A DNA stretch of 64,000 nt from Callorhinchus milii. Lineage: Eukaryota. Positions 3,030-42,100 of the stretch are shown in pieces; the stretch's first letter is position 1, and the number at the start of each line of letters is the position of its first letter. Both the position numbers and the translations under genes were made by a program. The notes below the pieces were generated by a model. The model ran no database searches, was not told where the DNA came from, and worked only from the letters and a program-made list of their open reading frames with translations. Location of the stretch: positions 12,464,001 to 12,528,000 of the forward strand of contig NW_024704742.1 of the NCBI RefSeq assembly GCF_018977255.1, written 5' to 3'.

Positions 3030-3157
3030 CTACAGGATAAATGGGATAATGGCAGCTCTATATACAGGATAATTCTTAAAATGTTTGCGATATTTGAAAT
3101 GCTTCCTTTGAGCCCACAGGCTCAACTGGAGTGATATCATCAGAGCAAAGACAGCAA
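3030..3157 (-). CDS. TECRL: TECRL last coding exon 12 (128 nt) [41 protein letters not shown]
   Basis: Strong acceptor tctttctcttttgtttcag; ends IIPFIL-TAG like TECR/TECRL C-termini. Confidence 0.95.
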
Positions 3158-6100
3158 CTGAAACAAAAGAGAAAGAGTGTAATTATTGGCACATATATCT
3201 TAACCTCCTGTATCAACCATACAACAACGGAAATGGAGACAATGGAGGAGGCTAGTTTTCCCACTGTTTGGTATTTGCTCCTCCCAGAAGTCATAATAAT
3301 AATAATCCTTGCATTTAATATTCCAAACAAACAGTCATTCCACTTCACAGTAAAACCCTGTGAAGCACTTTCAGACATCTCAGTAACATAAGACAATCAA
3401 ATACAAGGATTACTATTATTTTTACGAAATTTCTGTGTTAGTTATCCAATCCAATTATTGCTAATAATTTGCAATGCAAAATTGAGTGTTTTTTTCACGT
3501 GGAGTCCTGTAGCTCAGTGGTTAGAGCACTCGCCTTGCAAGTGAAAGACCTTGTTCAATTCCCGGCAGAGCGAAACCTTGGGCAAGTTTCCTAACTCCAC
3601 ATGCCTGATAATGATTCCTCAAGAAAAAAATAATATTTTGGTCACATCAATCCACAACTGTTTGCGGGACACTGCTGTGCACAATTGGCTGCCACGTTTT
3701 GCCCACAAATATACAGTCAATTCACTTTACAATATATTCTGTGAAGCGCTTTGAGATTTCTAGACGACGTGAAAAGCGCTATATCAAATGCAAGGATTAT
3801 TATTAAGCGTCTTATCATGTCTGAGATAATAATAATAATAATAATAATCCTTGCATTTGATATAGCGCTTTTCACGTCGGGAGGACGTCCCAAAGCGCTT
3901 CACAGAACACACTGTAAAGTGAATTGACTGTATATTTGTGGGCGAACGCGGCAGCCAATTGCGCACAGCAATGTCCCACAAACAGTCGTGGATTGAAAAT
4001 GACCAATTTATTATTGTTTTTGGTTTTTGGAGGGATTATTATTAGGCTCTGTGTGGAGTAAGGAAACTTGCCCAAGGTTTCGCCCTCTGCCTGGGATTGA
4101 ACTCAGGTCTCTCGCCTCAAAGCCCTTCACAGAATATACTGTAAAGAAACTAATTCCCACAATATAATCTGCCATGCACCCTAATCCCAATTCCTTACTC
4201 TTTCTTTGTAAAATAATATTAATTGTACACTGTAATACACCACCCAGCCAAATCATTCCATACTCTAACAACCCTCTGGGAGGAGAAGCTCTTCAGAACC
4301 TCTCCTTCCACCTCACCCCAATCCCATGTTATAATGTTAAATTCATGCTGTTCATGAATTCAATTCAAATTCAATTGTTCCTGAATAACCCGCCTGAAAT
4401 CAGTGGCTATGTCTCTTACCCGGGAGCGTTTGTGTCATTATTGTGAAACTAATCCAGGTTCCCATCTGCAATGAGGAGAACACAGAGTTTAACTGATTTT
4501 GTAACATTGTCCAGGTTTAATCAACTAGTCCACAGATAATCATAGTGAATCCACTAACTGCTGCATTGAATAATGTGTTGCATTTACTGCCATTAGAGAA
4601 ATTGCACATGAAGAAACAACTGTACTTCTCATGTTGAAATTACTTTCATGAAAAGCAATTTTCTAAAAGAAAAGTTCATTTTAAATCCGATCAATAAAGT
4701 GGAGCAGTAGATATAATTGTAACTTTTGAAATTAAATGTGTGAAAAAGCATAAAATTGCTTCACGATTTGCATTAGAAAGGAGTGTGATGTCTGTTTTTT
4801 TTTAAAAAAAGGATACAGTCTATGTGATGGTTACAAAGACTGAATGTGACAGGAGTGACCCTGCCTTCTGCTGTTTCCAATGATGACATCCAAGAAGCAG
4901 GGCCTGCAGTGTTTGACTTGTGAATCAAGACCTTTGACCTCGAACACCAAGATTCCATATTCTTGAGATTTTATTTTCCAAAAAAAAATTGGCAGTCAAA
5001 GGCTTCAACACCACTTCTTGCTTGGGTCCAAATCCCTGAATGTTCAGCGCCTTGGGACATCCTCCTGATGTGAAAGGCACCTACACAAATGTCATTTTGT
5101 ATTGTATCTGACTTTGCAGGGTTCAGTATTGAGGGTGATGTGCGGGGAAGGAGGATATATATCAGACATGATACAACACAATTTATATTCATGTTTCGCC
5201 TTTCACATCAGAAGGACATCTTCAAAGAACTTTACACTACTGACTGTGACCCAAGCCAGGTCACGAGAGCTGAAGATGGTGGGGAGTTGAACAATGACCA
5301 AAGGCAAAGAAGTCTTGAAAGTGAGGGGGAGGAGGAGGATGAATCGGTTGGAGACACACTATGATGGAGTAAAGGAATGGAAACTGAAAGCTCACCCGCC
5401 AATGGTGGGGCGGGTTAGGGTGAAGAACATGAAGCAGGTCCAGTGAAAGCTGGAATAAGGAGCTACCAGGTTAGTAGGGTTGCAGAAGATCACAGAGCTA
5501 GGGTGCGGTAATACTGTGGAGGGATTTGAAAGTGATCAATAATAAATGGAGCATAAAAGTGGTCCCAATATAGCTCTCACCACTATGCTTACTATCAGTT
5601 ATTGGCACTTGCCCTCCTTGCAGAATTGCCCAGATTGTTGGCCAGGACACAGGGAGGAATTTCTCTTTTCAAGAAGGAAATGGGATCTTTGAAAAGTCAG
5701 ATTAGTTTAATCCGAAGAACAGCACATCCAACAATGCAGCATACCTCCAGCATTGCATCGGTGTGTTAGCTTAGACTATGCAGGGCTTGAACCATCCGAC
5801 TCCAAGGCAACCTCTCTTGTGACCACATATTAAAATAATTAATTACCTCATACGTGTAGTTAGGGCAGGAGACAAGTTTGAAGAGCCACGTGAAGGGGTT
5901 GTATGTGGCTCTTGCAAAATGAATCCCAGAACCTAGAAGTAAACAAAGCAGATAGAATATTGGCATTGGTAGATGTAATAATCCTAGCATTTTGATATAG
6001 TGTCTTTCACATCTTGAGGAAGACTCAATATGCTTCACAGGATTCACAATAATATTCATAATAAATAATAATTCTTGCGTTTGATATAGCATCTTTCACA

Positions 6101-9100
6101 TCAGGAGGGCATCTTAAAACCCTTCAGCATATACTGAAATGTTTTGTGACTATGTAACTGGTAGGCAAATACAGCAGCTAATTTGTTTACAGCAATGTCC
6201 CATAAACAGCCATGAACTGAATGGATCAACTTTATTCGGGGCATTGTTGGGCAGGACACTGGTAAGCAAAAAACCTCCTCTCTTTTTGAATAGTGCCATG
6301 GGATCTTTAACATCCACCTGAAGAGTTAGACAGGACCTCAGGTTGACATCTCATCTGAAGTGCTGCACCCAAAGCAATGCAGCCCACCTCCCATCACTGT
6401 ACCGGAATGTCGGCCTAGACTATATAAGTCTCATGTCCTGATGTGGGGCTTGAATGCACAACCTTCTGATTCCAGAGGCTGACATTTGTTCACCACTCAA
6501 CCATTGTACACAACTGAATTATCAAAATGTGACACATTTGGAGAAACACATGCCAGACAAAGCCTAAAACTATTTCCTTCTGATTTATTTGATCTTTGCC
6601 ACTAAATCTTATTCTAATTGATGCAGTGTGCATGATTATTGTATATTCTATTAAGTCACAAAATAACACTCTTTAATGGCTGTTTATTGTTATTCAGCAA
6701 TTTACATTCCTTTAACTTTGCCCTGTATACCTTGTATCTGTCCTGAAATTGCTCTAAATCGATGTCCTTTTGCTTCTTACTGTATTGATGCATCCTAAGG
6801 TATTGTTCTAAAGGGTCACATCTCAGTTAAGACATCATCATGTGCAAGTAGTGCTTTAAAATGAAACTTTCACATACCTGTTTTTTGCATGTGAACCAAA
6901 GCAATGTTTATAAAATAATTTCCAGCTTCACAGACCTAAGAGACAGAATTATTAATATTGTGGTTAAGAGATTCACCAATTAATGATTAAAACCACATTT
7001 GGATTTTAATGGGTCTGTCGCACTTTCCCCATGCATATTAGTCTAATGAAAATACATATAACTTTCACTGTCATATCTGATCAACTGTTAATTATAAAAA
7101 GAGAGAATGTGTCATAGTAAGTAATGAGATATGAGAAATAGTCAATTGAGGGTCCTGGGTTAGTTCCCTCAGGGCATGTGATACCTTCCCCATTGTGTAT
7201 ATATATATATATATATATATATTGGATCGCTTTTCCAGGGATAATAATTCCTTCAAAAAAAGTGAATAACAACAATTTGGTCACTCAATCCCCGACTGTT
7301 TGTGGGACACTCCTGAGCGCAATTGGCCACTGCCCCACAAAATACAGTATACACTTTACAATATATTCTGTAAAGCGCTTTGAGACGACTCAAAGACGAG
7401 ATAAGGCGCTATATCAAATGCAAGGATTATTATATTATATGATTATTTATATTATTATTTATATTGTTCCACCTCATTGTTGACTTTATCAAGATGAGGA
7501 ACGTTAGTGTTTGTAAGTGGAACTCTATCCTATTGTGTGAAGCCTGTATAAACATGTAACACCATGGACTAGAAAATTGGCCAATTCCCGGTCATTTAAG
7601 AAATTGTTAAAAAAAAGTGGTTCCTACTTAAAGAAATTTAAGTACAAAAACAACTTCACAATATATCTAATGTTTCACACATCTTTCCTCTGTTACCAGC
7701 AATGTGCAGGTCGTTGATAATTCATGCAATCAATGTCCTCTCTACCTATGGCCAGGGCTTCCTATGCTTCTGTGATCTCTCTGTTACCTTTGACACTGTT
7801 GATTATTCTATCCTTTGGCCACCACCTCGCCACCTTGTTAAAATAACAAAGAGTATTTTCCTAAATCTTCCAGCACCATGGACAATCTTACCATGAAATC
7901 AGAGATTCATAATACATTTAACAGCCCAGAAATAGGTGATTTGTCTGTACTAGTGCCAGCTACTTAACTGCAGCTTTAACTCCAATTTCATTTCTATGAT
8001 TCTTCTTAAATGGATCTGTCTGACATGGATTCAGGGGCTGCTGATGATTTTTGCAGTTTTCTTCCATTTTGTTTTCATATGTGAAATATTTTTTTCTGGA
8101 TGAAACCATGTCAATCTTGCAAATCTGAGCATTTGAAAGTAAAGTTACAACAACAACAACTTGCACTTACATAGTGCCCTCCACGCAGGTAGGGTCTCAG
8201 GGTCTAACAATGGCAGAGCCTGACTCCAAAGCAGGGGGAAGGGGGAGATGGCCATAAGCATGGACGACCAGGAAAGTCTTCAGGCGAGACTTGAGAGGGA
8301 AGAGAGAGGTCAAGGTGGAAGGATTGAGGGAGAGTGTCCCAGAGTTTTAGGGCATAGTGGCTGAAAGCACGACCTCCGATGGTGGGGCGGAGGATGCAAG
8401 GGACAAGCAGGAGGCCAGTGCTAGTCGAGTGGAGGCACCGGGTGGTGGATTGGGGAGTGAGGAGGTCAGAGAGATAGGGAGGTGCCAGAGACTGAAGGGA
8501 TTTGAACACGAGTGTGAAGATTTTGAAGTCAATCCAGTGATAGGGAGCCAGTGGAGCCTGGGCCAGAACTGGTGAGATGTGAGTACGGAGTTTAGTCTGG
8601 GTTAGTATGTAGGGGGCAGAGTTCTGAATGAGCTGGATCGTTTGAGTGGTGGAGCTGGGGAGACCAGCGAGTAGTACATTGGAGTAATCCATGCAGGAGG
8701 TGACAAACGCATGCACAAGAGTTTTGGATGCATTTGGGGTAAGGTACCATCAGAGGCGGGCAATGTGGCGGAGGTGGAAGGACCGGACATTGGGGAGGAA
8801 GGACAGCTGGGGGTTAAACCGGATGCCTAGGTTGCGCACTGGTTTGGTGAGTGTGAGGTCCAACCACGGAGGTTGAGAAGTTTAGATCCGCAAGAGTGAA
8901 GACGTTGATGGGAGCCAAGGAGTATGGCTTCTGTCTTGGCCACATTCAACTGCAGGAAGTTTGTACTACAGGCCCTGATAACTGTCAGACAAGCTGATAG
9001 AACATTGAGGGACCTGGAGTTGGTACTGGAGGAGGCAAAGTACCCCCAAATTAGCTGTTTGGATGCGATCTGCAGTAGATTTGGGACATCCTCCCAATCT

Positions 9101-12100
9101 GAAAGGTTCTATACAAATGTAATTTTGCATTGTATTTCTTCCTCTGGGGAACTTCTCTCAGCATTTCATAATGCCAGCCTTTTATCTTTCCATCATTAAG
9201 CTCTTTCTTAAATAATCTGACTTCTGTCACCCAATCTGATAAACCGCTGATTACCTTCTGTGCGAAAAAATGTACTCCTAGTGCCCATTCTAAAATGACC
9301 CCTGACCCTCTGAACTTGTGCCCTGTTGTCCTGCATGCAGTCTTGGAATATCTGAAAGTGTTCTCACTTTATCTTCTCAATCTCATTTTGTATCTTATCT
9401 TTTCGGCCATAAAATATCCAGTCGATTCATTTTACAGTATATTCTGGGAAGCATCTTGGCGACGTCTCAAAGACGTAATAAGGCACTATATCAAATGCAA
9501 GGATTATTATTATTACTATATGCATCTACAAGGTCTCTTCTGCAACATTTCTTTTCAAGGATGAAGGACCCCCTAGTTTACCTAATTGCTCCTGATAGCT
9601 CATCCCTCTCACAGTGTTTGTGTCATGTACCATCTGGCTATTTTTATTCATTTCAGGGTCACCTTAACATGGAATAGAATGGAATGTGCACTCTCTCCCT
9701 GTAAGAGACGCATCCTACTTACCTAATTCTGGAAAGTATTAGGTTGGCAAGAGCATGCATTGGGGTATTCCTGGAGTCTAACCAGCTAAGACCACATAGC
9801 TTGACATTCAGAGACAAGCTTTATCACTGTTTGTCCAGCTAGGACCACCAGACAAGGCCCAAGCAACTTTGGCTTGCAGGGTTAATAGGAGCTGAGTGGG
9901 ATGATTCCATGTCCCCAGTTAATGGTCTGCCCTCCCAAGTCCTGCCCATGAGCCAGGCTGGCTGTGCTCTCTTCAGCAGAGTTTAGATTATATTGCTTAT
10001 GCGGAGCAAAACAACAGGGCAGACTTGATGGGTCAAATTCTGCAGCATTATATGATTCTGCAATGGAGGTTCTAAGTTAATGTACCTTAGTTCCTGGTGG
10101 GCATGGGATAATAGCACAGAAACTGTGCTGCAGTAGTCAAAGCAGCACTACAACAGCAAAATTACATTTGTATTGGGCATTTCACATCGGGAGGACATCC
10201 CAAGATACTGGACAGTGTACAGCATTTCAGACCCGAGCTGGGGTCAGGGAGGGAGAAGGAAGGGGAGGGGAAGTGACAGATGGCATGGTTGAAGAGGAGG
10301 GTTTTGAGGCGGGACTTGAAGGAGGCTAAATTGATGTTCTCAATAAGAGAGGTCATGATTAGTGTGTATGACTAATGGAAAATTCTGGGAGTTAAGTACA
10401 GGGCCAAGCAACTTTAATCTGCCATCTATCTGCTCCAAACTCAATCTGGGAGTACTTGCGGCTCACAGTGACATTCAAAGGTAAGGAAGTATTGACATTC
10501 AAAGGTAAGGAAACACTGATACAGCTCACCTCGATGAAAGGAGATACATTCAAAGGAACAAATAGTATCTTTACTTCTGTCGTCCTGGTCGCAGCCTGAT
10601 GCCGCTACCGAAACAAGCAATATATAAAAGTTAATAATAATCCTTGCATTTGATACAGCCATGGATTGGGTGACCAAATTATTTTTTAAAAGGGATTATT
10701 ACCCCTGGAAAAGTGAAGAGTTCCTACTTACTAGGCAAACAGAGGCATGTGGGATAAGGAAGCTTTTACCTCAGGTTTCGACCCGCCCACGTTTGATAAC
10801 CCGGGTCCTCTCGCTTGCGATGCAAGTGCTCGGACACGACTCCACAAACCACAGGTGCTATGAAGTACATTCAATGGTAAGCTTTTAAAACTATGGTCCA
10901 TATTATTTAATCAAATAAACCTTGGACTCACCAGAACACTAATCACGGCTGGTATAATTTGCTTGGTGCCAAAGCCTAGGAAACAAAATATACAAAATAA
11001 TCTGTGATTTCCAGCATGCAATGTAGGCAACTGCAATCACTTTGATAAACTAGATGAACCTTTCTGCTTCTGAAGATTGTTTTCCATTTTGTAATCAGTT
11101 TTCCAGCAATTTCATAGTATCCATTTTTTAAAATTACTATAATTCCCAACCTTCCTTCTGGATGCAGAGCAAATAGGAATTTCTTGCAAAATACCAAATT
11201 AATGTAGGTCAGAACTATCCCAGGTCACTCAGAAACACAATGCAACAGGTAAAAAAGGTTCATATCTTCAAAATCTGCTCTTTCGCAACCTACTTTACAG
11301 AAGGCGTTTAAGGTCTGTTTAAAATCAACAGCTTTTCAAAGTGAAAGAGTACCAGGTGAAACATCTTTTTGAAGAATGAGCTTCATTTACTAAATAGCAC
11401 TGTCACAGACCTCAGTGATCGAGCAAGTCTTAATAATAGTTGCCAGAGGAATTGACTCTGACAAAGATGTAATCTTTATTCGAAGCAACAACAACAACTT
11501 GTTGTTTTCAATTCCAATCCTTTCAATTCCTATTTCCCACTTTCTCCCCATATCTTTTAATACCCTGACCTACCAAAAATCTATCAACCTGACTCTTTGA
11601 AGGTGTGGATGGATCCAGCATCCACTGCCTTTTTGGGGAGAGAATTCTAGATTTCTACCCCCCTTTGAGTGAAAAAATGCATCCTGATTTCACTCTTAAA
11701 TGGCTTGGTTCTAATTTTGACTATGCCCAATTGTTTTTGGATTCCCCCACCAGAGGAAATAGCTTCTCTGTATCTACCCTATCAAATCCCTTTAGCGTCT
11801 TAAGTACCTCAATCAAATCATCACTCAACCTTCTATACTCAAGGGAATACAATCCATGTTTAGGCAGCCTTTCCTAGTAGCTTAACCCTTTTTAGGCCTG
11901 GTAACATTCTGGTGAACCTGCACCCCCTTCAGGGCCAATATATCTTTCCTGAGGTGTGGTGCACAAAGTTGAACATAGTACTCCAGATGAGTCTGACTGA
12001 CCCCCTATACAGAGCCCTTCACGCCAGACGTCTAGGAGGTCTTCAAGTCGTGGACTTACCACTCAGTAAACAGAGGGTGTAGAGTAAGGAATCTTGCCCA

Positions 12101-15100
12101 ACGTTTCGCCTTGCCCAAGAATCGAACCCAGGTCTCTTGCTTGCAAGGCGAGTGCTCTAACCACTGAGCTATAGGACTCCACTGTGTTCCTAGCAACAAG
12201 TTGTGGACACCACACTTGCATTTGAAACTCAAGCCTTCTCCAGAAAAGCAGACTGCTTTGGAATGTATTCCAGAGGTATATTTTTATATTTAAATAAAGA
12301 TTTTAAGAATATAAAAAAGGATGACATGAGATAAATTCATTTGATTCCCCTCAGCACTGCTCTGTCTACAGATCATGGAGCTCTACTCAACTCATTTTTT
12401 TAAAATTCTGTATAAATCATTCTCACAATCGTAAAAGTTTTTGAGCAAAATATTTTCACATCCTTATTATCTATTTCTAATCGTGCTATCCTTCAGTCAA
12501 CAGTACCTTTTCTTCCCTCACCCTCATGCCAGCAACCTCAACAGCACAGAAATAATATCTGTTGATGTTTGATCATCTTGTTCTACATCTATCCTCATTA
12601 AGCTTCAATCACACATTAGCCAGATATTTTGCCTACAAATATACAGTCAATTCACTTTACAGTCTATTCTGTGAAGCACTTTGCGACGTCTAGAAGACGT
12701 AAAAAGCGCGATATCAAATGCAAGGATTATTATTATTTATTATTTGACAAGATCAGTTTGGATGTGGAAGAACTTTCTTATTCAGCATCAGATTGTTTTG
12801 TTGAGTTTGTTCCCATATGCGAAAAAAACATTTTTACTAATCTCTGGTCTCAGCAGACATTTCTTTCATTTTAAAACAAAATCATCTGTATAATAATCCT
12901 TGCATTTGATATAGCGCCGTATCACGGCTTTGAGATGTCTCAAAGTGCTTCACAGAATATACTGTAAATTGAATTAACTGTATATTTTGTGGACGAAATG
13001 CAGCAGCAAACTTTGCATAGCAGTGTCCCACAAACAGTCATGGATTGAGTGACCAATTTATTATTATTTATTTTGGAAGGAATTATTACCCCCGGAAAAA
13101 CGATCTGCCAATCGACTAATAACCGGGTTCCCACTTACTACTAGGTAAACAGAGACGTGTGAAGTAAGGAAACTTGAACAACGTTTCGCCCTGCCAGGAA
13201 TCAAACCCAGGTCTCTCGCTTGTGAGATGAGGCTCTAACTACTGAGCTACAGGACTCCACCAATAATACCTACCATCTTTTTCTCACACACACTCCAAAT
13301 ATCATCATACAAGTGGCAATTCATTCTCCCTACTCTGGCCTGACAGTCCAAAGCAAACCTCAAATGTTAGTCTGCCCCTTGTATGGTGAACATATCTGAC
13401 GGCTTTCTGAAAGAGCAATCAGCAATCTGCCCCTTCCCTTTAGTACACAGATCCCAGTCTATAATTAGCTGTTACATTGCCAGCTGTAGAAACCTGGAGA
13501 AGCTCATCTTCCATTTATTGCCTTCCCTCCCTGCAAGTTATCCCATTGCCTACATTCAATGTTTTCCCATGAAGATGCCTGAGATTTGAGAATACTTGTC
13601 TTATTCCCATACACTTTTAAATAAAATGCACTGATTTCCGGTGGAGTTCTGCAATAAAAAAATAATTTGGTCACTCAATCCGCGACTGTTTGTGGGCAAT
13701 GTTGTGCACAATTGGCTGCCGTGTTTTGCACGCAAAACATACAATCAATTCACTTTAGAATATATCCTGTGAAGCGCTTTGAGACGTCTCAAAATCTTGA
13801 TAAGGCACTATATCAAATGCAAGGATTATTATTATTATAAAGAATCCAAACAGATGAGGAGGTCAAAAGAGGCACTTTAGATTATAGATTAAGAAACTAC
13901 AGATTACACCATAGATTAAGATGTGAAACTTGGATCATTGCTGTCCACACAGTCTGAGCTGATTGACAGGTGAATTTACTCCAGTGCAAATAAAGCCACT
14001 GTAAAACAAAATTGCAGTGTTTCTTAATGCATTCCTTCTGATAGTGCAAAGGATACATCATAAAGCCTAGATTTCACCCCCAGCATACTCCCAACTACAT
14101 TTTATGTTTCTGTGCCACAATTCTGGCAATCATGGTTTGAACACTCTCTGGACATTTGTAATGATCACAACTTCATTCCCCTTTAGTGCTGAACTCCTCT
14201 CCTTTTAAATCAGGACAGCTAAGGTCAGGTTCCAAACCAATGCAATGACGTTAACATTTTTTATAACATTTCACAATTTATGAGTCATGGATATGTGGGG
14301 AAAGGAAGAGCGAGGCAAGGAGCTATGGTTCCATCCCCTTGTGAGTCAATAAGATATTTATTCACATGGTTAATTGTGCTCTCTGAGAGGGGTCCTGATG
14401 AAGGCATTTAAAATCATGAAAGGAATCGAAAATAAATAAGTGGGCATAAATAGGTTGAGGAGCATAAATTTGAGGTAGGCAGTAGCAGATCTAAAAGGGA
14501 ATTTAGAGGGAACATCTTGACACAGAGGATATTGAGAATGTGGAAGTCACTACTAGTTGGAAGCAGAAAGTATCAATATATTTAAAAGGAAACTCGATGA
14601 GAGACTAGGGTGGTAGATGGGATTAATTGGTGGAAGTTCAAATTCTGACGCAGACTAATTGGACCAAATGGTCTGTTTCCATTATGTAGACCATGTGGCT
14701 CTATATGAGTACAGTAGAAATGTCTATGTGATACAGTAGAAATTTCTCTCCATTGTTATTGCATTTTGGGTCTCATGAAATGATGGTTCAAAAGACTTAT
14801 TTACAACAAACACAATTGTTGCTGTGATATCCTGAAGAATTAAATATTGTTGTCTCAGGGAACTAAAAACCTTTGCAAAATCTAACACAGAACATTAAAT
14901 TGAATAACAGTTTCAGAGTGGTCAGTTCTAAATCATGCAACGAATATTATACCTACAGGGAGGTATTTATAGAGGGTGGTTGATGTAATAGGCCATCCAG
15001 GTAGTAAATCCCCAATAAAACACACAGCCCTGTGAACAAAAACAATACTAATAATGTTAAACATTTTCGATATATTTCAGATGCTTTTGATGTGAACTCG

Positions 15101-18100
15101 CTTCTTTAGATATTAGGTTTGGGAATACTTTGCCAATGCTGCATAAAAGGATGAAAAGATTGATGCAATTTACGAGACTTAAGGATTTCATTTTAATTGT
15201 TGAGACCTCTATTTTCATCTGTCAATATCAGCAACCATTGGCAAATTCCTTTGACACATTTCACTCATGGGAGGGGAGGTAGAATTGTCCCATTTATTGG
15301 CTCTCATGTTATAGCCTGCAATAGTAATTTTCTCTGTGTAGTTAAACCTGTGCTCAAATTTTGAGAGCTTTATCAGCAGTTAACATTCACCATCAGAAAA
15401 GAATACATTTACATTCTAGACCAGTAGTGGCCAACCTTTAAGGTCAGCCAACAAAATAAATGTTCTTGATTGAATAATTCTCGATTTATGCCATAAACAT
15501 GATATTTTATGCAAAATCAGCTTTGATCAGTACTCAAGATGCTACCCCATGTGAATGGCACCATATAATGCAAGTTGTTATTGTTATTGTTGGTGTATCT
15601 GAAGAGTTCTAAAGAATGGATATAGAAGTGGGAGGAAAGGAGTTCCAACACAAACCAAAACAACGAGATTACATTTGTACAGCGCCTTTCACATCCGGAG
15701 GATGTCTCAACGTGCTTCGCAGGATTTATTGTAAAGTTTATTGCTCTATATTTGAGGGGGAATACGCAGCGCATTTGCGCATAGCAATATCCCATGAACA
15801 GCCATGAAACAAATTACAAATTTTATTTGAGGGATTGTTAACTGGGATCCTGCAAGAAACTCTCTTCGCTTTTCAAGTAGTACCATGGGATCTTTAATGT
15901 CCACCTGAACAGATAAACGGGTCCTCAGTTTAACATCTCAACCGAAGGATGGCACCTCCAACAATACAATGCACACCCAGCACTGCATTTTAACCATTCC
16001 TTTAGCAAAATAGGATAATCCTGATGGCTTCCTATTAACACTATTCCAAGTTGCTTCTGTGAGATGACCCTTATGTACCAATTTAACACCATACATCAAA
16101 GATAAAGGACTGTTTTATCTTTACTGCTGAGCGATATGATAAAAAATGAATATGCCTCAATTCACCTGCAATGAATACACTGAACAACATCATAACGCTC
16201 TGTTTCAAGTACAAAGAGATGACCTGTTTTTTATGTGAAGAAAGATAATAAGTCTGTACTTTCTTTTGTAACAAGAAAAGAAGCCTATGTGTAATAAGGG
16301 CGATGTAGAAGTGCAGTCTGCCCTCATTTCTTTTGAGAGGTTAGCTGGATAACTCCTTTGGGAAATAAAAGGCAGATTATACTACCAGCTCCAGCCTTGC
16401 ATTATCTCTTCCACCTGAGCCCCTGTGCTTTACTCAGTATCACCACTGTCCTCTGGAGCACTACAATGTCATTACTGATTTGTTGAAAAACAAGAAGTTA
16501 AAACTTCGTCTGAGGCATTAAGATAATAATTTATTGAAACTGTGCTCTGCTGCGTGCGCAATTTAATCGGTTCTAGATAATAAAACATTGATGAAAGGAA
16601 TAACATTGGATAACATTGTGACTGAACAGTAAAACTGTGTAAAAGTATGATACAGCAAAACTGGATGAGGCTTGTTTTTAAAGAAACTTTGAGAAACTAA
16701 GGTGAAGGTTTCGGACCTCTCGTACAGCAGAAAAGATTTGAGGTAATAATCCTTGCATTTCATATAGTGCCTAGAACTAGTCAAAGCTTTTGTAAAGTAT
16801 AGTGACTTTATACCTGCAGGCAAACAGCACGGTAATATGCCACAAACAGCTCTGAAATTAATGTTCAATGTTTAATCTAGAAGATTGTTGGCCAGGTGAA
16901 ACTCCCTCGCTTTCGAATACTGTTAACTGGATCTTTGGCATCCACCTGAACAGGTAAGGGTTGGTTTAACATCTAATTTAAAGGACTTAGATGACACTCT
17001 GACACTGCAGTACTCCCCCAGTTTAAATTTGATCCAGAGCCAAGTGTGCTTCGAACTGAGCCGGGCTGACTCAAGAAATACCCAAGGTAGTGGTGAGGTG
17101 ATTGTTAGCTTGCCATATTTACTCCAATCTAAGATGGCTTGAATCTGAGGCAAAATCAGATTTTAGATGGTGCAAGAGAGGGATGAAGAACTTTACCACA
17201 ATTATAAAGCCCCATCATTTTGGAGGTAGTAAATAAATTGCACTCATTTTTAAGGTACTTTTTAATGCTAAAGTCTGATCTCAGTTCGAGTCAATACAGT
17301 ATTCTAGGCAGGGCGAAACCTTAGGCAAGTTTCCTTACTCCACACGTCTAATAATAATCCCTCCAAAAAACAAAACAATAATAAATTGGTCATTTTCAAT
17401 CCACGACTGTTTGTGGGACACTGCTGTGTGCAATTGGCTGCCGCGCTTCGCCCGCAAATATACAATCAATTCACTTTACAGTATATTCTGTGAAGCGCTT
17501 TGAAACGTCGAGAAGACATGAAAAGCACTATATCAAATGCAAGGATTATTATTATTTAATAAACCTCTTGCAAAACTGTTGAAACTTACCTTTAGCATAT
17601 TCTTCAGTGCTGTGTTTCCATTGGAGAAGTTGTGAACAAATAGGGTCTCCAGGAGTTGCTTAGCATAGTGAATGGAGTGACAGATACAAGCCAAGCTGGG
17701 AGGGAAGCAGAGAGAGACAAATGTAAGAGTAATTTGGAGTGAAGGTACATTGATTAATGAATAATGTGCAACATGGAAACAGGCCATTCAGACCAACCAG
17801 TCCATGCCACTGCTTATACAACAACAACAACAAAATTACATTTTACAAATTACAGCGCCTTTCAATTTGGGAGGACGTCCCAAGGCGCTGGACAGACAGA
17901 GTTACAGACCCGAGCTGGGGGTCAGGGTGGGGGATGGTGGAGGGCGGGGGGGAAGCAGGGAGATCAAAAGCATGGTCGAAGAGGAGGGTTTTGAGAGGGT
18001 CTTGAAGGTGGCATGGAGGGGGCGAGATGGAGGGACTGTGGGTTGGAGTTCCAGAGAGTGGGGGCAGAGTGGCGGAAGGCCTGCCTGCCAGTAGTGGGGC

Positions 18101-21100
18101 GAACAAAGCGGGGGACGTGAAGCTGGCCAGAGCCCGCTGAGTTGAGGGAGCGAACAGGATGGTAGGGCATTAGGAGGTTGGAGAAGTAGCAGGGAACAAG
18201 ACCATGGAGGACTTTGAAGGTGAGGACCAGGATCTTGAACTGTATCCTCTGTGTGAAGGAGTTGGGCAAGTATGGGGGTGATAGGGTCACAAAGCCTAGT
18301 GCAGAAGAGGATATGGGTTGCAGAGTTCTGGATGATCTGCAGCCTGTGAAGGGAGGAGTTGGGGAGGCCGACAAGCAGTGAGTTTGCATAGTTGAACCCG
18401 CGATGTAATGAAGGTGTGTATAAGGGTTTCGGCGGCCTGCAGTATGAGACAGTGTCGGAGCCGGGCGACGTTGCAGAGGTGGGGGAAGGCAGTGGTGCAG
18501 ATGTGGGGTAGAAAGGTTGGTTGAGCGTCAAACAAGACCCCAAGGTTCCGGACTGGCTTAGTAAGGTGGAGTGTGCAACCATGGATGGTGATGCTGTCAG
18601 CGCCTGAGGTGAGGAGGCGCTGACGGGAGCCAATCAGGAGAGCCTCGCTCTTGTTGACGTTCAACTGAAGAAAGTTAGCTCTCATTCAGGTGTTTGGCAG
18701 ATATTCTGTCAAGACAGCAGTGGGAATCAAGGGTGAAGGCAGAGAGTAGAGTTGGGTGTCATCCGCATACATGTGAACATTGACTCCATGTCTGCGGATC
18801 ATGTCACCAAGAGAGTATAATATAGATATTGAAAAGGAGGGGACCAAGGACAGAGTCCTGAGGAACACCGCACAAGATGGTCCGGGGGCTACAAGAGAAG
18901 CCGTTTCAGGAGATGCAGTGAGAGGAGAGGCAGTGAATGAGGATAGAGTAGTCGACGTTGTGGGGAGGTTGGAGATAGTGCAGTAGTTAGGGAGTACAGA
19001 AGGGTCCAGGGAGGTTTTTTTTTTTTTTTTTTTTTTAAGTACAGGAGTGATGACAGCATTTTTTATTGGGGTGGGAACAGTACCAGAGGACAGGGAGAGG
19101 TTTACAATGTCAGTGAGTAGAGGGGTAAAGAAGGTGGAGCTGAGGGATAAGGAGAGGGGTAGGGATGGGGTCAAGGAAACAGATGGTAGGTTTCATATGG
19201 GTTATGGTGGTGATGAGAAAGGAGGGGGAGACAGGTTCAAAGATGTGGAGGGAGAGATGGGTAGGGGCTTGTGGGAGGAGGAAATGGGGAGGGGGTAGCA
19301 GTTGGAGAGGCAGCTGAGTGGATTCCCTCAACTTCGGATTTGAGCAAGTCCAGCATCACCTTGCAGTTAGCATTTGAGGTGAGGATGGGTGAGACATGAT
19401 AGGGTGGATGGAAGAGCTGGTTCATGATGGAAAAGAGGAGCCTGTGGTTGTCCTTGGCCTCCAAGATTGTCTTGGAGTAGAATGATGAGTTTGTGGAGGC
19501 GAGGACAGAGCGATAGGATTTCACATGGTCCAGCCAGATCTGTCAATGGACAGTTAGGGTTGATTTAAGCCAGGCGTGCTCAGCGGAACATGCCTGGGCT
19601 TCAAGGGAGCGGAGGTGGCTGGTGTACCAAGGTGATTTGCATGAATAGGAAACGGATCGGGAGGAGAGGGAATCGAGAGTGGAGGGAGCTGTGGAGAAGA
19701 GTGATGGAGGAGGATAGGTCATTGCGGGAGGATACCCAGAGGGGAAGGAGTTCAGATGACTCCAAGGCAGCAGAGAGGGACTGGGGGGGAGATACTTTTC
19801 CAGCGGCAGTATGAGATGGGTTGGGTGGCAGTGGGGAGAGGGATTGAGGAGTTAAGGGAGGTGAAGTGATGGTCCGAGATCGCTTTGTCGATGATGGTGA
19901 GGTCTGAGACAGTGAGGCCCTGAGTGATCACCAAGTCGAGGGGGTGACCGCGGACATGGGTGACGGAGTGGATGTGGAGGGAGAGATTGAGAGAAGAGAT
20001 AAGGGAGGAAAAGTCAGCAGAGGTAGAACAGGACGGGGTGAAGTGAAGATTGAAATCGCCAAGGATGAGGAAGCATTCAGAGCAAAGAGAGAGGGAAGAT
20101 AGGAGGGTGGAGATGTCGGGGATGAAGGTGGGGGAGGGCTTGGGCGGGGCAGTAGGTAATAAAGGATAAGGTACTCAAAGGAGGGGCAAGTTCCAGAGGA
20201 GTAAGGGGATAGGCCGAGCGGGGACCAGGGGATGAGAGCCACATCGCCACCATGGCGGTTAGGTCGTGGGGTGTGATGGAAAGTGTAGCCGGGTGGTGTG
20301 GCCTCAGTAAGGGGGAAGGTGTCACCTGGCGTGATCCTGGTTTCAGTGAGGGCGAGAAAGTCAATGTGTTCATCGACGATGAGGTCTTGGATGGTATGTG
20401 TTTTCTTGGAGACATTTTGTAGACTGATGCAGAGGGGACAGTCGGTGTGGGAAAGTGGAAGGTGAGGTGGGGGAGGAAGGGGACTGCCAGGGAGGGTTGA
20501 GATGTGGATCAGGGAGGAGAGGTTGTCCCCCATCATCGGGGACCGGTGAGCTATGCGGCGAGAATGGGAGATGGGGCAGTCAGAGTAACTGCTGTTGGAC
20601 AGCCAAAGGGGACTCTCATACTCTCAGAGTATTTATACTCACATGAGGGAGGACAGATTTGCAAGGCTATGGGGAGACAGCGGGGGAATGGGATTGATTT
20701 GGGTAGCTCTTTCAACGGTACAGGAACAATGGGCCGAATGGCTTCCTTCTGTGCTGTATAATTCAATGATTCTATGAGTCTCCACTCTTTCCTTAAGACC
20801 GACTTTGAGAGGAATAGAAAGGTATGAAAGGGATCTCATACCTTTCTATTCCCTTCTTCCTCATGTGTACAGTTTTCAAACATTTTACAAAGGTGACCTG
20901 TTGACTCAGGAGTATAACCAAAGGTATTTTTATTCTTTGAGATATTACATGACTGTGTATAATTATTTGTTATTGTCTGTGATGTTGGAAATATTATAAT
21001 ATACAGCTTACAACCTCTTAAATTTGTAACAACAATGTTACATTTGTATAGCACCTTTCACATCCGGAGGATATCTCAAAGACCTAGGAGGCTGAGCTGG

Positions 21101-24100: not shown

Positions 24101-27100
24101 CAATTATCCTTCCTCCCCCACATCTGGTCCCTCACCAGCACCACTTTCTTCCACCTCCGAAGCATCGTCCATCTCCGCCAATACCTCTCCCCAAAAGCCG
24201 CTGAAACCCTGGTCCATGCCTTTGTCACCTCTCACCTGGACTACTCTAATGCCCTCCTCGCTGTTCTCCCATCCACTACCATCCATAAAATCCAAATCAT
24301 TCAAAACTCTGCCGCCCACACTCTCACCCGTACCAAACTCCGTTGCTCGATCACCACAGGCCATGCTAGACTGCACTGGCTGCCTATCCCAGAGAGGATC
24401 GTTTTCAAGATCCTCACCCTTGTATTCAAGACCCTGCACTCCTCTGCACCTCCCTACCTCTCTGACCTCCTCTCTCCTCAAAACAGTACCCATTTCCTTC
24501 ATTCCTCCAGGTCTGGCCTCCTCCTCGTCCCCCAAGTCCTCCACTCCACCCTCGGCGGCCGTGCCTTCAGCCACTATGCCCCGAGGCTCTGGAACTCCCT
24601 TCCTCATCCCCTTCGCCTCATCTCCTCTCTTCCCATTTTCAGGTATCGGCTGAAGACCTTTCTTTTCGACCGTGCCTTTGGTCACCTTCCCCCCCCTCCC
24701 CCTGGCTCGGTCCCGGGATCCGTTACTGTGAAGTGCTCCGAGTTGCCACCCAGCGTAGAGGGTGCTATATAAATCTAAGTGTTGTGGTACTCATAATGGC
24801 TTTCCTAGAATGCTCATTGTACAACTTAAAACATTCATCCATCTCTTTGATAATATCTTTGATAATCAACAGGTATCCAAGTATTTTATCAAGCAAAATA
24901 CTACATGAAACATTAAGAGAATATTCTTACACCAATGTCTACAAAAAGTGGCTTTTAATAATAATTATCCTTCCATTTGGTTTAACGCCTTTCAGTTTGG
25001 GAGGATGTCTAAGCACTTCACAGGATTTAAAGTATAAAGTGGAGTGACTGTAATTTATGGGCAAATGTTTGTGGGTTGTGGCTTCATTCTCTGAGGATGA
25101 CCATGACCCAATGGGGAATAAACTGGTCAAAACAAACAAGGAAAGGCCCCCCAACAAGGAATGCCTATTAACAATGCTTAAGAATAAAAATTAATGTAGA
25201 TCTATCAAAAAAATCCCAAACATCAAACATCAAAACTGTCTGTTAAAAATTCTTCAAAAATGTCAGTTTGGGAAGGTTAGAGAATCAGAAAAAAAGAGAC
25301 TACTTACTGCACCACTGAGTGACGGCTGTAATGGTTAATATCCTCCACATCATACAGATTTGGTAAACGGAAATAAAACAACAGGTAGATAAAGAGAGGT
25401 CCAGTGTATTCTGTTAGAAATACCTAAAAAAAAGGTAGGTATTTCAGCTCCATTTGTGATGATTCAAGAATGATTCCCTTAAGAAAATCTGTAATAACCC
25501 TTGCATTTGGTATAACACCCTTCACTTAAGGAGGCCATCTTAAAGGGCCTATGGCCTTTGTCCACTGAAGTATCAATGGCTAAAGTTTTTCTTGGTCAGC
25601 TGGGTTCTGACACATGTGGAAATCCATCACCATGCTTAAGAGTATCCAAACTGTTCATTCATTCCAAAATTCATTCATTCTAGTGGGTGCTGTTCTCAGT
25701 CTGAGGCATATGATTGATACAGAGTTTGGTGGAACTTTCACTGATCACCTATCCCATTCTAAAGCTGACAGGTGGCGCTGATACTGGATGCCTAGAATTG
25801 GAATTTTGTTTTATGAGCAACTTGAAGATTATAAAATTCAACAAAATGTAACACGACAAACAGGTTTCAGTCAGGCTATGTTGTTAGCATTCACCTCACT
25901 GAAGGTTGTGGATTCAAGCCCTTGTCAAACCTTTGAACTCATGTTAGTTTCCCCTGGTGTTCCAGCCAACAATCTCCCACATAAAATTAGTAACTCAACT
26001 TCATGGCTGTTTGTGGGACATTGCTGTGCACAAATTGGCTTCTTTATTCACCTACAAATGACAGTCACTAAACTTCACAGTTAACACCCATGAAGCACTT
26101 TGAGACACTTCAAGCACTTGGTGAGGTGCTTGTCTAAATGCAATTATCGTTAACTACTTGTTGAATTTGAAGAAAGAATCTAAACTTGGAATTCAGATGA
26201 TCAAAACAAAATTAAAGATTTGTTATGGTATTTTTCTGATGTCATCTGAGACCTCCAATTAGATCAGGGTCTTGTGGATCACTGAGAGAGATCCACTATT
26301 ACCTGTGTAATCAGATTTCTCCCATTACAAGTTGTGTAGAAGCATCACTATGTCAGCCAAATATTTATAAACAGTACCAAAATGTTAATATTTCCAAGGG
26401 GAATAAGGTTAATATAACAAATTGGGAATTTTTAAAATCAAACATTATCATTAATGCTGTAATATTTCATAATATTTAGTGAACCAGCTGCATTCTGGAA
26501 GAACATATCATTTTCATGCAGATTAATGAGCACACTCACAAATGACCCAGTGTATGAAGGCTGAATTTAAGTGTATTTATCAACCTAAATTGTCTTTCTT
26601 TTGCATAATTCAGTCAACTAGGATCATTTATTACTGCTAAAAAAAACACACAGGGAGTGCCACACAATATTACCTCCCTTTAAACCTCCTCTTCCTCCAA
26701 CAATCTACAGGCTTCTAAAAGTCAAGCTGTTATCATCCAACTCATCTCCTTTCATCTGCTACTCTTAAATTTGGGGTGTCTATGCTGTTAATTTAATAAA
26801 ATGAATTCCAAAAACATTGGCAACCTCAACTATTCATAACTTTGCATTAATATGGACTATATAAAAATAATTTACCTTTGCCACACAGATAACATGGTCT
26901 TAGTTACTTTTTTGGTTGTTTTCTTTGTCTTAGGTATCCTTTAAGCCAGATGTCACACCAGATGTTTGTGATTGGGTTTGTGACACCAAGCCACTTGGAT
27001 GTGAAGGCGTTCTAGAGAAAATGTTGTTCTCACCTCCTGCCTCTAACCTTTCTCTGCCCATCACAAACTCTCTGGTCTTTCTTGTATTTTATCAATGCTC

Positions 27101-30100: not shown

Positions 30101-33100
30101 TATTCACCTAGGTTGCAAAAATAGAAAAACAGATTATTTTCTAGAAGGGTAGAGATTAGATAGTGTTAGTGTTCAGAGGGATTTGGGTGTCCTTGTACAC
30201 CAGTCTCAAAAAGTTAGTTTGTAGGTCCAGCAAGCAACTAAGAAGGCGAATGGCATGTTAGCGTTCATTGCAAAAGGTTTAGAGTACAAGAGTAGGGAGG
30301 TCTTGCTGCAACTGTATAGGGCCTTGGTGAGACTGAACCTAGAGTATTGTGTGCAGTTTTGGTCTCCTTATTTAAAAAAGGACATACTTGCCTTAGAGGG
30401 GGTGCAGCTTAGATTCACAAGGTTAGTTCCTGAGATGAGGGGACTGACCGATGAGGATAGGCTGAATAAACTAGGGCTATATTCTCTAGAGTACAGAAAA
30501 ATTAGAGGAGATCTTATTGAAACATATAAGATTCTTAAAGGGCTGATAAAGTAGACACTGAGGGTCTGTTTCCCCTGGTAGGAGAATCTATAACCAGGGG
30601 TCACAGTCTTAAAATTAAGAGTCAGCCTTTTAGAACAGAGTTGAGGAAACATTTCTTCACTCGGAGGGTAGTGAATTTATGGAATTCACTACTCCAGAAG
30701 GCTGTAGCTGCTCAGTCCTTGAACATTTTCAAGGCTGAGACTGATAGATTTTTTTAAAAATAGGGGGATTATGGGATATGGGGATAGGGCAGGTAATTAG
30801 AGTTAGGTCTGAAGATCAGCCATGATCTTATCGAATGGCGGGGCAGGCTCGAGGGGCCAAATAGTCTACTCCTGCTCCTAATTCTTATGTTCTTATATTT
30901 GTACAGCACCTTTCACATCAGGAGGATATCCCAAGGTGCTGGACAGTCAGAGATCCGCACCCGAGCTGGTGGTTGGGTTCAGGAGGGTTGGAGGGTGGGG
31001 TGATATGTAGGCTTAGTGTCAAACTGCTTGTCAATAAGTTCCTAATCATCAAACAACAATATATGATCCAAGTTCAGAGAGGGTGTTTCAGAATGAAGGC
31101 ATTGAAAGAACATCCTGCATACCAAAATACAAAGGAATTAATAGCATGGAACAGGCACCTTGCATGGCTGGGGNAAAAAAAATTCTTGTGTTAAGTTATG
31201 TTTCTATTGAACTTTGGTGAATCAATGAATCTCTTGTGAAGCAGAATTCCTCAGTCTGATTTGATTAATAAGACCAGGTAACAATAATAATAACAATCCT
31301 TGCATTTGATATAACGCCTTATCACATCTTCGAGACATCTCAAAACGCTACACAGAATATATTGTAACGTGAATTGACTGTATATTTTGTGAGCAAAACT
31401 AAGTATTATTAGGGATGGCAAATGTTTATTCTTGTTTGAAACAGCGACTTGTTTTGATGTGTCCCCCTTCAAAATAAAAGCATAACTCATGCAATTCAGT
31501 ATAATTGTGGTCTGTCACTTGTATTGATCTGGAATCCTGCAGATATTTTGCTGACAGCCTTGAATTAACATTAGGATCAGCATTAGAAAAAAAAATTCTA
31601 TTGCCAATAATTCAGAAACATTTCCTAGCCAAGGTTTGAAACCCTCCATTGGACTGTAAGATCTACTGACAGGTTAATGTTTTCAAAGAAAAAATATAGC
31701 CTGCATTAACCTCAGAATAAATGCAAAGCATTCAAGGCGGGAAATGGCCTGAAGCCCTTTAAAGTCTGTGGCAAGTCTCCTGTCTCTGATGGCTCAGATG
31801 TTGAGCTATGATACTGTCCTGCTCAGGCTCACCACTGTCCAGCTGAGCTGTGGCCCCAGGTCTCTGAAGTACATGGTGACAATGGAGGAGACTGCAAGGT
31901 TCTTCATGACTCTGGAGTCTTGCAATAAAGGTCCAGCTGTAAGATAAACCAGATGGAGAATAATGTTAAGTTTATATCATCACTTCAGCAAAGGGAAAGT
32001 GCCACTTTACATAGCCCACCAAAAATCCCTTTAAGAGATCCTCCTGACATGAAAAGTGCTATATCAAAGGCAAGGATGATTATTATTATTTAATAAACTG
32101 TGCTGAATATCAGTTGGAGCACGTGTACATGTTTTATGTAGAACCAGTCAAGGTTGTCCTGTTTAGAGTGACAATCACTTATCAAAAATGTATAACCTCT
32201 CTCTATGCATCATATATGGAGTCGTGGAGCCCTGTAGCTCAGTGGTTAGAGCACTCGCTTTGCAAGCGAGAGACCTGAGTTTAATTCCAGGCAGAGGGCG
32301 AAACCTTGGGCAAGTTTCCTTACTCCACACGCCTAATAATAATCCCTCCAAAACCAAAAAAAAAACAATAATAAATTGTTAATTTTCAATCCACGACTGT
32401 TTGTGGGACATTGCTGTGCGCAATTGGCTGCCGCGTTCGCCCACAAATATACAGTCAATTCACTCTACAGTGTGTTCTGTGAAGCGCTTTGGGACGTCCT
32501 CGCGACGTGAAAAGCGCTATATCAAATGCAAGGATTATTATTATTAATCTTAATTTCAGGCTACAGCAACAACAACTTGGATTTATGTAGGACCCTCCAC
32601 GCCAGATGGCATCTCAGAGCGCTTTACAGTAACGGATCCCGGGACCGAGCCAGGGGGAGGGGGAGGAAGGTGATCAAAAGACGCGGTCGAAAAAGAAAGG
32701 TCTTCAGCAGAGACCTGAAAATGGGAAGGGAGGGAGCGAGGCGAAGGGAGTGAGGAAAGCAGTTCCAGAGCCTCAGGGCATAGTGGCTGAAGGCACAGCC
32801 GCCAAAGGTGGAGTGGATCACCCGAGGAACAAGGAGGAGGCCAGATCCAGAGGAACAAAGGCAATGGGTGCTGTTTTGAGGAGAGAGGAAGTCAGAGAGG
32901 TAGGGGGGTGCATAGGAGAGCAGGGACTTAAATACAAAGGTGAGGATCTTGAAGTTGATCCTCTCTGGGAGAGGCAGCCAGTGCAGTCTGGCAAGGACTG
33001 GGGTGATCGGGGAACGGAGTTTGTGCGGGTGAGAATGCGGGCGGCAGAGTTTTGAATGATTTGGATTTTATGGATGGTAGTGGATGGGAGGCCGGTGAGG

Positions 33101-39100: not shown

Positions 39101-42100
39101 GTATGGTGGAGAGGGTGCTGTGGAAGAAAGTAAACACAGAGGATGGGTTGTGCAGGAAATAGGCCAGAGGAGGAGGAGTTCAGAGGACTCCAGGGCAGTA
39201 GAGGGGGATTGCAGGTAGATCTTCTTCCACGGGCGGTAGGAGATGATGGTAGGTTTGGAGGCAGTGGGGAGAAGGATATAGGATTTGAGGGAGATGAAAT
39301 GGTGGTCCGAGATGGCCTTGTCGGTGATGGTGACATTCAAGACACTGAGGCCCCGGGTGATCACCAGGTCGAGTGGGTGGCCGTGAACATAGGTAGCAGA
39401 GTGGATGTGGAGGGAGAGGTTGAGAAAGGAGAGGAGAGAGAAATCTGAGGAGGTGCAGCAAGAGGGGGTGAAGTGGAGGTTGAAGTGGCCTAGGATGATG
39501 AGGCGGTCGGAGAAGAGGCAGAGGGATGCTAGAAGGGAGGAGATGTCAGAGATGAAGGTGGGGGAGGATTTGGGGTAAATTAGGAGAATTTTTAGTGAGA
39601 GATTAAGGTGACCGCCTCCCATTGTTATTGATTGTGAACTGCTGTGCTTTGCTATTAAGCAATAAGCAATGTCAGTCAGGTAGCCAGCCAACTGCTACTT
39701 GTTATTCTGCTGTGAATAAGGCTTTCTTGAAGTTGTAGTTAATGAAGTGACATTGAATTTGGGTCACAAAAGTCTTCTCAAATCATAACCAATATGGCTT
39801 GAAGCCTGAACTCAGCTCATTAACAAAAGAAGCTTGCATGCTTTAACTCGGCTATATCGAAAATTCCCTGGCAGAGGTGATAGGAAAAGACGTATTGCAT
39901 GGTCTTATTGAATGTAGCCAACTGTGATCTCAAATTTGACACTGTCTGCCATTTGTCATGCTGAGTAGGATGTGACTGCACACATGGATGCACATTTTGC
40001 TAACAAAACTGGATGGTTCAAGTAATACTTGGATATAATAGTACATTTATTTTATACCAAGCCTAAAGGTATTCAACTTTGCTTCCTCTCAGCCCTGGCT
40101 CTTGTTCACACTCTGCCCTCACTGTCTCTCACACTCAGCTCTGATCTAAATTTAACAAATTCTGAGTGGAAGTAAGCTCATCAAGTCATATATAAACATG
40201 TGTGACAATCTTTAACTATATACACCAAAAAAAATTAAATTTGAGGAATTCCTTAATTATTGCCGACATTAATTAAAATATACCCCGGAATGTTATTCCA
40301 TAGACTTCACAAATGTTTGGTTTAAAACACACAATACAGTATGGATAAATTACATCAGCCATCATGCTCTATCCAGCTTTGACCCTCTCCTGCTGGAATC
40401 TAAAGTTTGCTAAATATTTTTTATTCTATCTGACTGCACCGCTTTAATATGCTTTAACATTCCCCTTCCATTTGGGTGGCTCCCATTGCAAAAACACGTC
40501 TGCAGTAAACGTTTGATTGCAATTCATTTTACTGTGCCTTCATTTAACGTTTACAATGCTTTCCTCGGGTTTATTTCAGATGTTTCACTACCAGTGAATG
40601 TGCGCTAATCAACTTTCATGGTAAATCTAGTAAACAACTCCTGTAATTTGGTAAATATGATAAACAAATGTACAATTAAATCTGCAAATTTGCTAAACAA
40701 CTGTCAGAATTTGGCAAAGTGAGTGAGCTTTTTTTTCGTTATGATTACCCCTTTCTAATGATGATGCAATGCACTGAGTTAGTGCAGTTCTTCATTTGTG
40801 CCTCTGTTTGATTCACTTAGACATAACAGCTGCCGATAATAAAATTATTTTCTCTACATCTATTGTGACTGGTTTCTTTGATGGAGTCATTAAAAAACAC
40901 AGAAGTTAATCCAATTCCCTCTGCTTTTTCACATCTCAAAATATACCTCTTTGTACCTAACCCTGCTTTCAGTTATCTTTCCATGCCCCATCCACCTCAG
41001 GTCCACCCTGAGCTCTGGTGACCATCCAGAATTGGCAAGTGCTTTGAGACATCCTCCCAATATGAAAGGCGCTATATATGTGTAAATTGTATTGTATGTA
41101 TTGTAAAGCAGTTCACACGATGATGATGATGATAATATTAATATTAACAATCCTTGTATTTGATATCGACAGACAAGATCTTGGTTTGATGAATGACACC
41201 ACCAACAATCAACACACACCCCCAATACCACATTGGACTGTCAGCCTAGCCTATATGAGTGCATCACATTAATTGGTGGTAGTAATTCTTTTAAAATAGG
41301 CAATGATATTTCAGATTGCTCAATTTGATCTATTCCTCAAATGATTGAAATCATGGGGATGAAAACAGTTGCAATGAGAGCCACCAGCAAGTAACTGGGA
41401 CATGTGTCACGCCAACCCACAGGAATTGCACTCTGTCCTGCCAGAGTAGATTGCATCCGAGCAGTGTTCCTGTAGGTTGGCTTCCCTGCCTGCGAGAGCC
41501 GCTATTTGGAATTGATGAACATTGCCCATTGCGAGCCTGCATATTCAAACAAAGTGAGCTGTGCCTTTCAGTTAGGGAGGTAATCACCCTCCTGTCTTCC
41601 ATTACAATCAGTGACACAATATGGATTTTATTTCACTCATTGTATGAGACTTGATCTGCTTTCTTTTGAAAGAAACAGTGCCTTTCCAATTATACCAACA
41701 CATTGCGCTAAGTGACAATACAAAGGTTAGCATCCAGTTGGCACAGTCCTGACAATGTGCAACCGAAGAATCATACATTCCTGCTATAAATTATAACAAA
41801 AATGTTCAACAAAACTTACTGCGTTCCAACTGAAGACCAACATGGGAAGGGTACCACTGAGAAGCTGTCAAGGACACGAAAATCAACTACAGTCATCATT
41901 TAGCATTTCTTACTCTTCATTGAAATACTTGGCTAATTTTAATGCAGTGCCAGTGTTTGTATTCACAGTCGAGAGCTGCTGGTAAGTATAACTGGGAACA
42001 ATGTCCCTAAAAACGTGTTATGTATTTCAGTCCAAAGCCCAAATATCTCTGCCACGGTGTTCCTGATCACGCCATTATCTAAAGATAGAATATTGCCTTA

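Follow-up and report, generated by a model that had tools for sequence, protein, structure and literature searches.

TECRL, a gene of heart and muscle, is poorly understood, but when both alleles are lost in humans, lethal arrhythmia results. Two reports connect biallelic TECRL variants with a severe arrhythmia syndrome (PMC13492428, PMC12122765). The human loss-of-function alleles, which belong to the overlap of catecholaminergic polymorphic ventricular tachycardia (CPVT) type 3 and long QT, are the closest described counterparts of the allele analyzed here: the gene is the orthologous one, and truncation removes the conserved C-terminal reductase-like core of its product. Here, we analyzed a stretch of 64,000 nucleotides of the Callorhinchus milii genome (the window, positions 12464001-12528000 of contig NW_024704742.1, hereafter C1, of RefSeq assembly GCF_018977255.1), which carries on its minus strand the TECRL gene of this species with an in-frame TAA stop codon in exon 7. 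Unlike the human alleles, this one is part of a reference genome, that of a holocephalan fish. The current RefSeq assembly of C. milii is reported to have been produced from PacBio CLR reads with Falcon (PMC12952989, Table 1). Our literature searches for TECRL in Callorhinchus or the elephant shark found no paper.

The gene resembles unitary pseudogenes of recent origin, and nonsense alleles that segregate and are present in reference genomes, in that a single copy carries one disabling substitution and shows no other decay. Unitary pseudogenes are characterized by fixation, loss of expression and relaxed constraint, whereas the protein-level constraint on C. milii TECRL looks normal. Shortened TECRL isoforms annotated in other species provide another point of comparison. 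Isoform X2 of the shark Chiloscyllium plagiosum (P0004, 317 residues versus 356) lacks exactly the residues encoded by exons 7 and 8, as does one C. milii gene model (P0002). In the other species with such isoforms exon 7 is open and a full-length protein is annotated, whereas in C. milii the skipped form would be the only open frame. At the structural level, TECRL shares its fold family with TECR and the Caenorhabditis elegans very-long-chain enoyl-CoA reductase art-1 (22of_A), and with human steroid 5-alpha-reductase 2 (SRD5A2, 7bw1_A). Residues 55-356 of the shark protein can be aligned with art-1 (E 1.2e-71), and its residues 194-355 with SRD5A2. In contrast to TECR and art-1, TECRL forms a separate vertebrate paralogue clade, and its catalytic activity is not settled.

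An in-frame TAA interrupts exon 7 of C. milii TECRL

To describe the gene, exons 2-6 and 8-12 were located by tblastn using shark and ray TECRL proteins, and the exon borders were set by reading the splice sites. This resulted in eleven collinear exons on the minus strand between window positions 44865 and 3030: exon 2 (44814..44865, 52 nucleotides (nt), found with shark TECRL and bordered by AG and GT), exon 3 (41820..41864, 45 nt), exon 4 (31833..31936, 104 nt), exon 5 (25308..25423, 116 nt), exon 6 (17590..17695, 106 nt), exon 7 (14957..15029, 73 nt), exon 8 (10932..10975, 44 nt), exon 9 (6878..6935, 58 nt), exon 10 (5847..5932, 86 nt), exon 11 (4420..4465, 46 nt), and the coding part of exon 12 (3030..3157), which ends with a TAG at 3032-3030. 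All 11 exons are preceded by an AG acceptor and the 10 internal ones are all followed by a GT donor. When spliced, exons 2-12 comprise 858 nt: 285 codons, among which there is a single stop and no frameshift, and the TAG at the end. The chance that 285 codons spread over 11 exons stay open save for one stop is (61/64)^285, or approximately 1e-6, and such an open frame is far beyond chance. The original prediction, made from the sequence alone, had described ten other exons as open, in phase and flanked by GT-AG, and splicing of exons 2-6 and 8-12 bore this out. Exon 7 also has the length and the proper splice sites claimed for it, with AG and GT read at 15029..14957, a pyrimidine tract in front of the exon (...ttgttcacAG), and a donor side that reads GTaggt.

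The internal stop is a TAA at 14967..14969 (minus strand), located 10 nt from the 3' end of exon 7 and followed by five exon junctions. It occupies the Tyr codon of the HPLYTPP motif. This Tyr had been placed at about human Tyr240, and it does correspond to Tyr240 of the human-derived sequence P0069 when numbering starts at the Met. This Tyr and the adjoining Thr are invariant in 22 of the 22 other TECRL and TECR proteins aligned. The adjoining codon is altered too, since it reads ATA (Ile, 14964..14966, minus strand) where all 22 other sequences have Thr. Going from TAY ACN to TAA ATA therefore takes two base changes within four bases, where the original prediction had considered a single-base error. 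The stop is followed by 123 encoded residues, one fewer than the approximately 124 first estimated, and these include the NPFTW and, as predicted, the VSCPNYTYE motifs. These residues belong to the Steroid_dh domain, for which the limits in bamboo-shark TECRL are residues 206 and 356.

The locus is the single-copy TECRL orthologue of C. milii

When 23 proteins were compared in a maximum-likelihood tree, the C. milii sequence was placed inside the TECRL clade (support 100/100) and not with TECR, and its sister group was formed by six elasmobranch TECRLs (support 97/94). Pfam searches agreed with this identification, which was also that of the original prediction. The Steroid_dh profile (PF02544, cut-off 22.6 bits) was matched by the gene models P0205 (72.6 bits) and P0002 (74.6 bits), and the ubiquitin-like TECR_N profile (PF21696) was matched by P0205 with 49.1 bits over profile positions 38-77 only. 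This second match is partial because exons 1 and 2 are missing from P0205.

To determine the copy number of the gene, the 991.5-Mb assembly was searched with the Pfam Steroid_dh profile and with shark TECRL. No second TECRL locus was found in these searches, in which the other matches were TECR-like loci on two contigs (C5 and C29) and further Steroid_dh genes. Placement in the TECRL clade and the lack of a second locus in the assembly identify this gene as the single-copy TECRL orthologue of C. milii. When the protein collection was queried with the open reading frame (ORF) of the last exon, two proteins labelled Callorhinchus milii were retrieved. With exons 4-6 as the query, the best 120 of 180 matches contained no C. 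milii protein beyond the P0002 cluster, and neither a TECRL of this species derived from transcripts nor a holocephalan orthologue was among them.

Three annotated gene models bypass the 3' part of exon 7

Three gene models have been annotated at the locus, and all of them avoid the 3' part of exon 7, where the stop is located. P0002 (XP_007906224.1, 216 residues) joins exon 6 to exon 9 and thus skips exons 7 and 8. P0003 (UniRef A0A4W3GYN4, 194 residues) exits exon 7 after ...TTWM and goes on in exon 10, which it extends into the intron. P0205 (XP_042194885.1, 303 residues), the model that RefSeq uses at present, follows exon 7 as far as ...AYYINH and continues in exon 10, by which 18 + 44 + 58 = 120 nt are dropped. 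The donor at this exon 7/exon 10 junction (window 14975/5932) reads CT and not GT. In addition, the 5' end of P0205 consists of three exons at approximately C1:12571593-12575967 that have no similarity to any TECRL, and exon 2 is omitted. The models look like attempts to find an open frame around the stop, and the sequence of XP_042194885.1 suggests that it may have been built in this way and may need curation.

We take P0002 and P0003 to be products of an older Sanger/454 assembly. If this origin and the PacBio description of the current assembly both hold, the disruption has been seen with two technologies. Together with the two substitutions at the site, this would make a consensus error unlikely.

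The stop is probably a very young nonsense allele

Apart from the stop, the encoded protein shows no decay. The C. milii terminal branch of the tree measures 0.16 changes per site, versus 0.19-0.30 for the paths that lead from the same node to the six elasmobranchs. The identity of the C. milii protein to its human and coelacanth counterparts (60.9% and 61.6%, respectively) is close to that of the bamboo shark protein (62.1% and 62.8%). A disabling mutation in the only copy is thus present, as in a unitary pseudogene, and the relaxed constraint of such genes is not seen, since the branch is short and there is one stop and no frameshift.

A comparison with a second organism is consistent with this. 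Reads from four runs (X1, X8, X19, and X10) were mapped on window positions 1500-18500 with a likeness of at least 80%, which produced matches flooded by intronic repeats. X1 is one of four samples of C. milii (X1-X4) that come from a single 2025 study and hold 70-81% of the words. The rows listed included neither exon 7 (14957-15029) nor an exon-exon joint, with 1626 difference rows, 60701 joints and 28276 loose ends lying beyond the listing. A contig from run X10, which bears a different species label (organism B), covers exon 11 (window 4420-4543). Within this exon, organism B and C. milii differ at three positions (4427, 4430, and 4442), all of them synonymous third positions, whereas at least 11 differences were found in the adjoining intron. 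Differences in exon 11 that are only synonymous indicate that purifying selection has acted on the downstream exons during most, if not all, of the period after the lineages split, and that in the related species at least the 3' exons of TECRL are still constrained. A conserved protein with one lesion implies, in turn, that the stop is very recent, segregating, tolerated, or not real.

Among these possibilities we favor, with a probability of roughly 65%, that the TAA is a real and very young germline nonsense allele of the only TECRL gene of C. milii, which eliminates the full-length product, with at most the form lacking exons 7 and 8 remaining. The substitution would have arisen with the adjoining Thr-to-Ile change, or near it in time. 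It would represent a null allele of appreciable frequency, or else the lesion with which a unitary pseudogene begins to form. Messenger RNAs that contain exon 7 would have their stop 10 nt before the exon 7/8 junction, with five junctions downstream of it, and would probably be removed by nonsense-mediated decay. Any truncated protein would end with ...AYYINHPL and would lack, with the last 123 residues, most of the steroid-5-alpha-reductase-like core. The only obvious open frame left would be that of a transcript in which exons 7 and 8 are skipped, and which encodes a protein 39 residues shorter. The stop, the exon structure, the orthology, the single copy and the lack of protein-level decay are seen directly, whereas it is inferred that the animal truly has this base, that its mRNA is degraded and that function is lost.

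Several observations weigh against it. The TAA is known from the assembly consensus, and the two assemblies may stem from a single animal and would then give no sign of a common allele. RefSeq keeps the locus as protein-coding. The shark-level conservation of the downstream exons would be equally expected from an assembly error or from a tolerated stop. Finally, at 89 sites that are invariant in 15 other TECRLs, C. milii has eight unique changes (C/P to S/S in exon 3, R to H, L to F, Y to stop, T to I, F to V, and P to A), which is the highest count in the set (5 in coelacanth and 4 in Bombina). Three of them are located in exon 3 (41858-41864 and 41841-41843, minus strand), which reads SSQWYPSH where all 15 other TECRLs read CPQWYPSR. 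These eight changes may be a weak sign of relaxed constraint.

A tolerated stop, a consensus error, or a recoded codon

If the stop is real, it could still be tolerated. In this scenario, TECRL would work through a transcript without exons 7 and 8, exon 7 would be dispensable, and the rest of the gene would be under selection. The lengths of the exons allow it: skipping exon 7 (73 nt) shifts the frame, whereas skipping exons 7 and 8 together (117 nt) is in frame and removes 39 residues. Such an in-frame skip had been anticipated by the original prediction, and the older RefSeq model P0002 has exactly that junction. The identical 39-residue deletion is found in annotated models of eight other species, namely six tetrapods (Petaurus, Anomalospiza, Passer, Oryctolagus, Pteropus, and Pan paniscus), the shark Chiloscyllium plagiosum (isoform X2), and Amia ocellicauda (isoform X2). 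With the older C. milii model included, 9 of the 15 sequences aligned carry the deletion, a proportion that does not represent a frequency because the sequences were picked by length. Selection on the remaining exons would also fit, since exons 9-12 are conserved to the level of sharks and the 3 differences from organism B in exon 11 are all synonymous. Moreover, 3 of the 8 unique changes at invariant sites are located within exons 7-8, which contribute 39 of the 285 codons.

Other features of exon 7 and of the deleted segment make a tolerated stop improbable, even though it is the alternative that fares best. The first 20 residues encoded by exon 7 are nearly identical to those of sharks, which indicates that the exon was constrained until recently, and the skipped isoforms of all species are known as computational models. 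Furthermore, the deletion takes approximately positions 4-58 of the 150-position Steroid_dh profile. In an AlphaFold2 model of the shark orthologue (mean predicted local distance difference test score 60.8, predicted template modelling score 0.45), which is too poor to be used for more than helix positions, the deletion would fuse the predicted helices 204-228 and 240-269. This low-confidence model gives a weak indication that the fused helix would invert the orientation in which the conserved C-terminal part meets the membrane. It is doubtful that the protein of the skipped isoform works. In one passage of a preprint on splicing in the human heart (10.1101/2025.03.21.642423), exon 11 is mentioned among the TECRL exons and exons 7-8 are not. 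That the full-length TECRL has been lost from the whole species, with the rest of the gene selected since because the skipped isoform is functional, is a more specific proposition and we consider it unlikely.

Marginally less probable than the tolerated stop is an error in the assembly or its consensus, in which case the animal has TAT or TAC at this codon and a normal TECRL. This would explain why the other codons show full conservation and no decay, and it gains some plausibility from the fact that the base is that of a consensus built from noisy long reads (PMC12952989, Table 1). The window also contains a single N, at position 31174 in intron 4, from which the original prediction had concluded that the consensus is imperfect. 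The N is indeed present. However, it lies in GGGGNAAAAAAAA, between a G run and an A run, and therefore represents a different class of error that says little about substitutions in mixed sequence. Since the invariant Thr codon is changed as well as the Tyr codon, two substitutions would be needed instead of an indel, and two substitutions in mixed sequence appear unlike the homopolymer indel that typifies long-read errors. In addition, all three gene models avoid the same part of exon 7, two of them presumably built on the older assembly made with another technology.

Recoding of the UAA, either by readthrough or by adenosine-to-inosine editing of both adenosines to produce a Trp codon, would allow a full-length protein and is indirectly favored by downstream exons that look fully functional, yet it is very improbable: the sequence itself shows that the UAA is followed by A, which makes for strong termination and which the prediction had called atypical for readthrough; exon 7 and 100 nt of flanking sequence on either side have no better fold than their shuffled versions (z = +1.30, with 185 of 200 shuffles at least as good) and thus show no sign of an editing duplex or of a readthrough-stimulating structure; and the edited codon would replace a Tyr that is invariant in 22 of 22 relatives.

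The consequences of a real nonsense allele depend on its frequency. If it is fixed or at high frequency, C. milii would be a natural vertebrate knockout that would test whether cardiac calcium handling needs the full protein or can rely on the shorter isoform, which is annotated from sharks to primates. If full-length TECRL has been lost from the species and the skipped isoform is functional, the essential role of TECRL would not depend on the reductase core being intact, and the CPVT type 3 gene would have a natural model in the elephant shark. Should the reference base be wrong, or the allele of the sequenced animal be rare, the finding would only mark a spot at which the reference and its gene models are to be corrected.

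Exon 1, TECR-like loci, and intron content

The shark TECRL exon 1 encodes approximately 70 residues, including the start codon, and ends in the conserved sequence ...HSKISYVEVEILDAQTKKQICILEK. In C. milii this exon was not found in the window by tblastn with eight N-termini, nor by tblastn in the 40 kb and then the 240 kb upstream of it (C1:12528001-12768000). A profile hidden Markov model of 15 TECRLs compared with all ORFs of at least 12 residues on both strands of 304 kb did not detect it either (best E = 1), and in the 991.5-Mb assembly the search for exon 1 produced two matches, which are the TECR-like loci on C29 and C5. A complete ORF from the exon 1 start codon is therefore not seen, both because of the internal TAA and because exon 1 was not found in the assembly. 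The description of the gene as "otherwise intact" thus applies to exons 2-12, which are intact save for the stop, and does not extend to exon 1. The 240 kb examined contain one gap, of 25 N, at C1:12567703. It is located 59 kb upstream of exon 2 and could be the hiding place of exon 1. Exon 2, which encodes part of the same ubiquitin-like domain as exon 1, is 74-79% identical to five of the six elasmobranchs and 68% identical to the sixth (Narcine). Because exon 2 is still well conserved, it seems somewhat more likely that exon 1 is unassembled than that it has been deleted.

At the TECR-like locus on C29 (952601-971149), the matches are on different strands: residues 101-244 match the plus strand (959595-964170) and residues 273-356 the minus strand (967873-971149). 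This arrangement could reflect an inversion, two partial copies, or a misjoin.

The introns of TECRL contain G-rich, GC-skewed stretches, for which tandem repeats were discarded as a cause because none was detected with a score of at least 200. These stretches coincide with long intronic ORFs at 33367-34005 (minus strand), 23546-24772 (plus strand), and 19931-20623 (minus strand), which are retrotransposon remnants. The ORFs match the reverse transcriptase profile RVT_1 (E 4.2e-24, and weakly at 8.3e-05) and, weakly, an endonuclease/exonuclease/phosphatase domain (0.0016).

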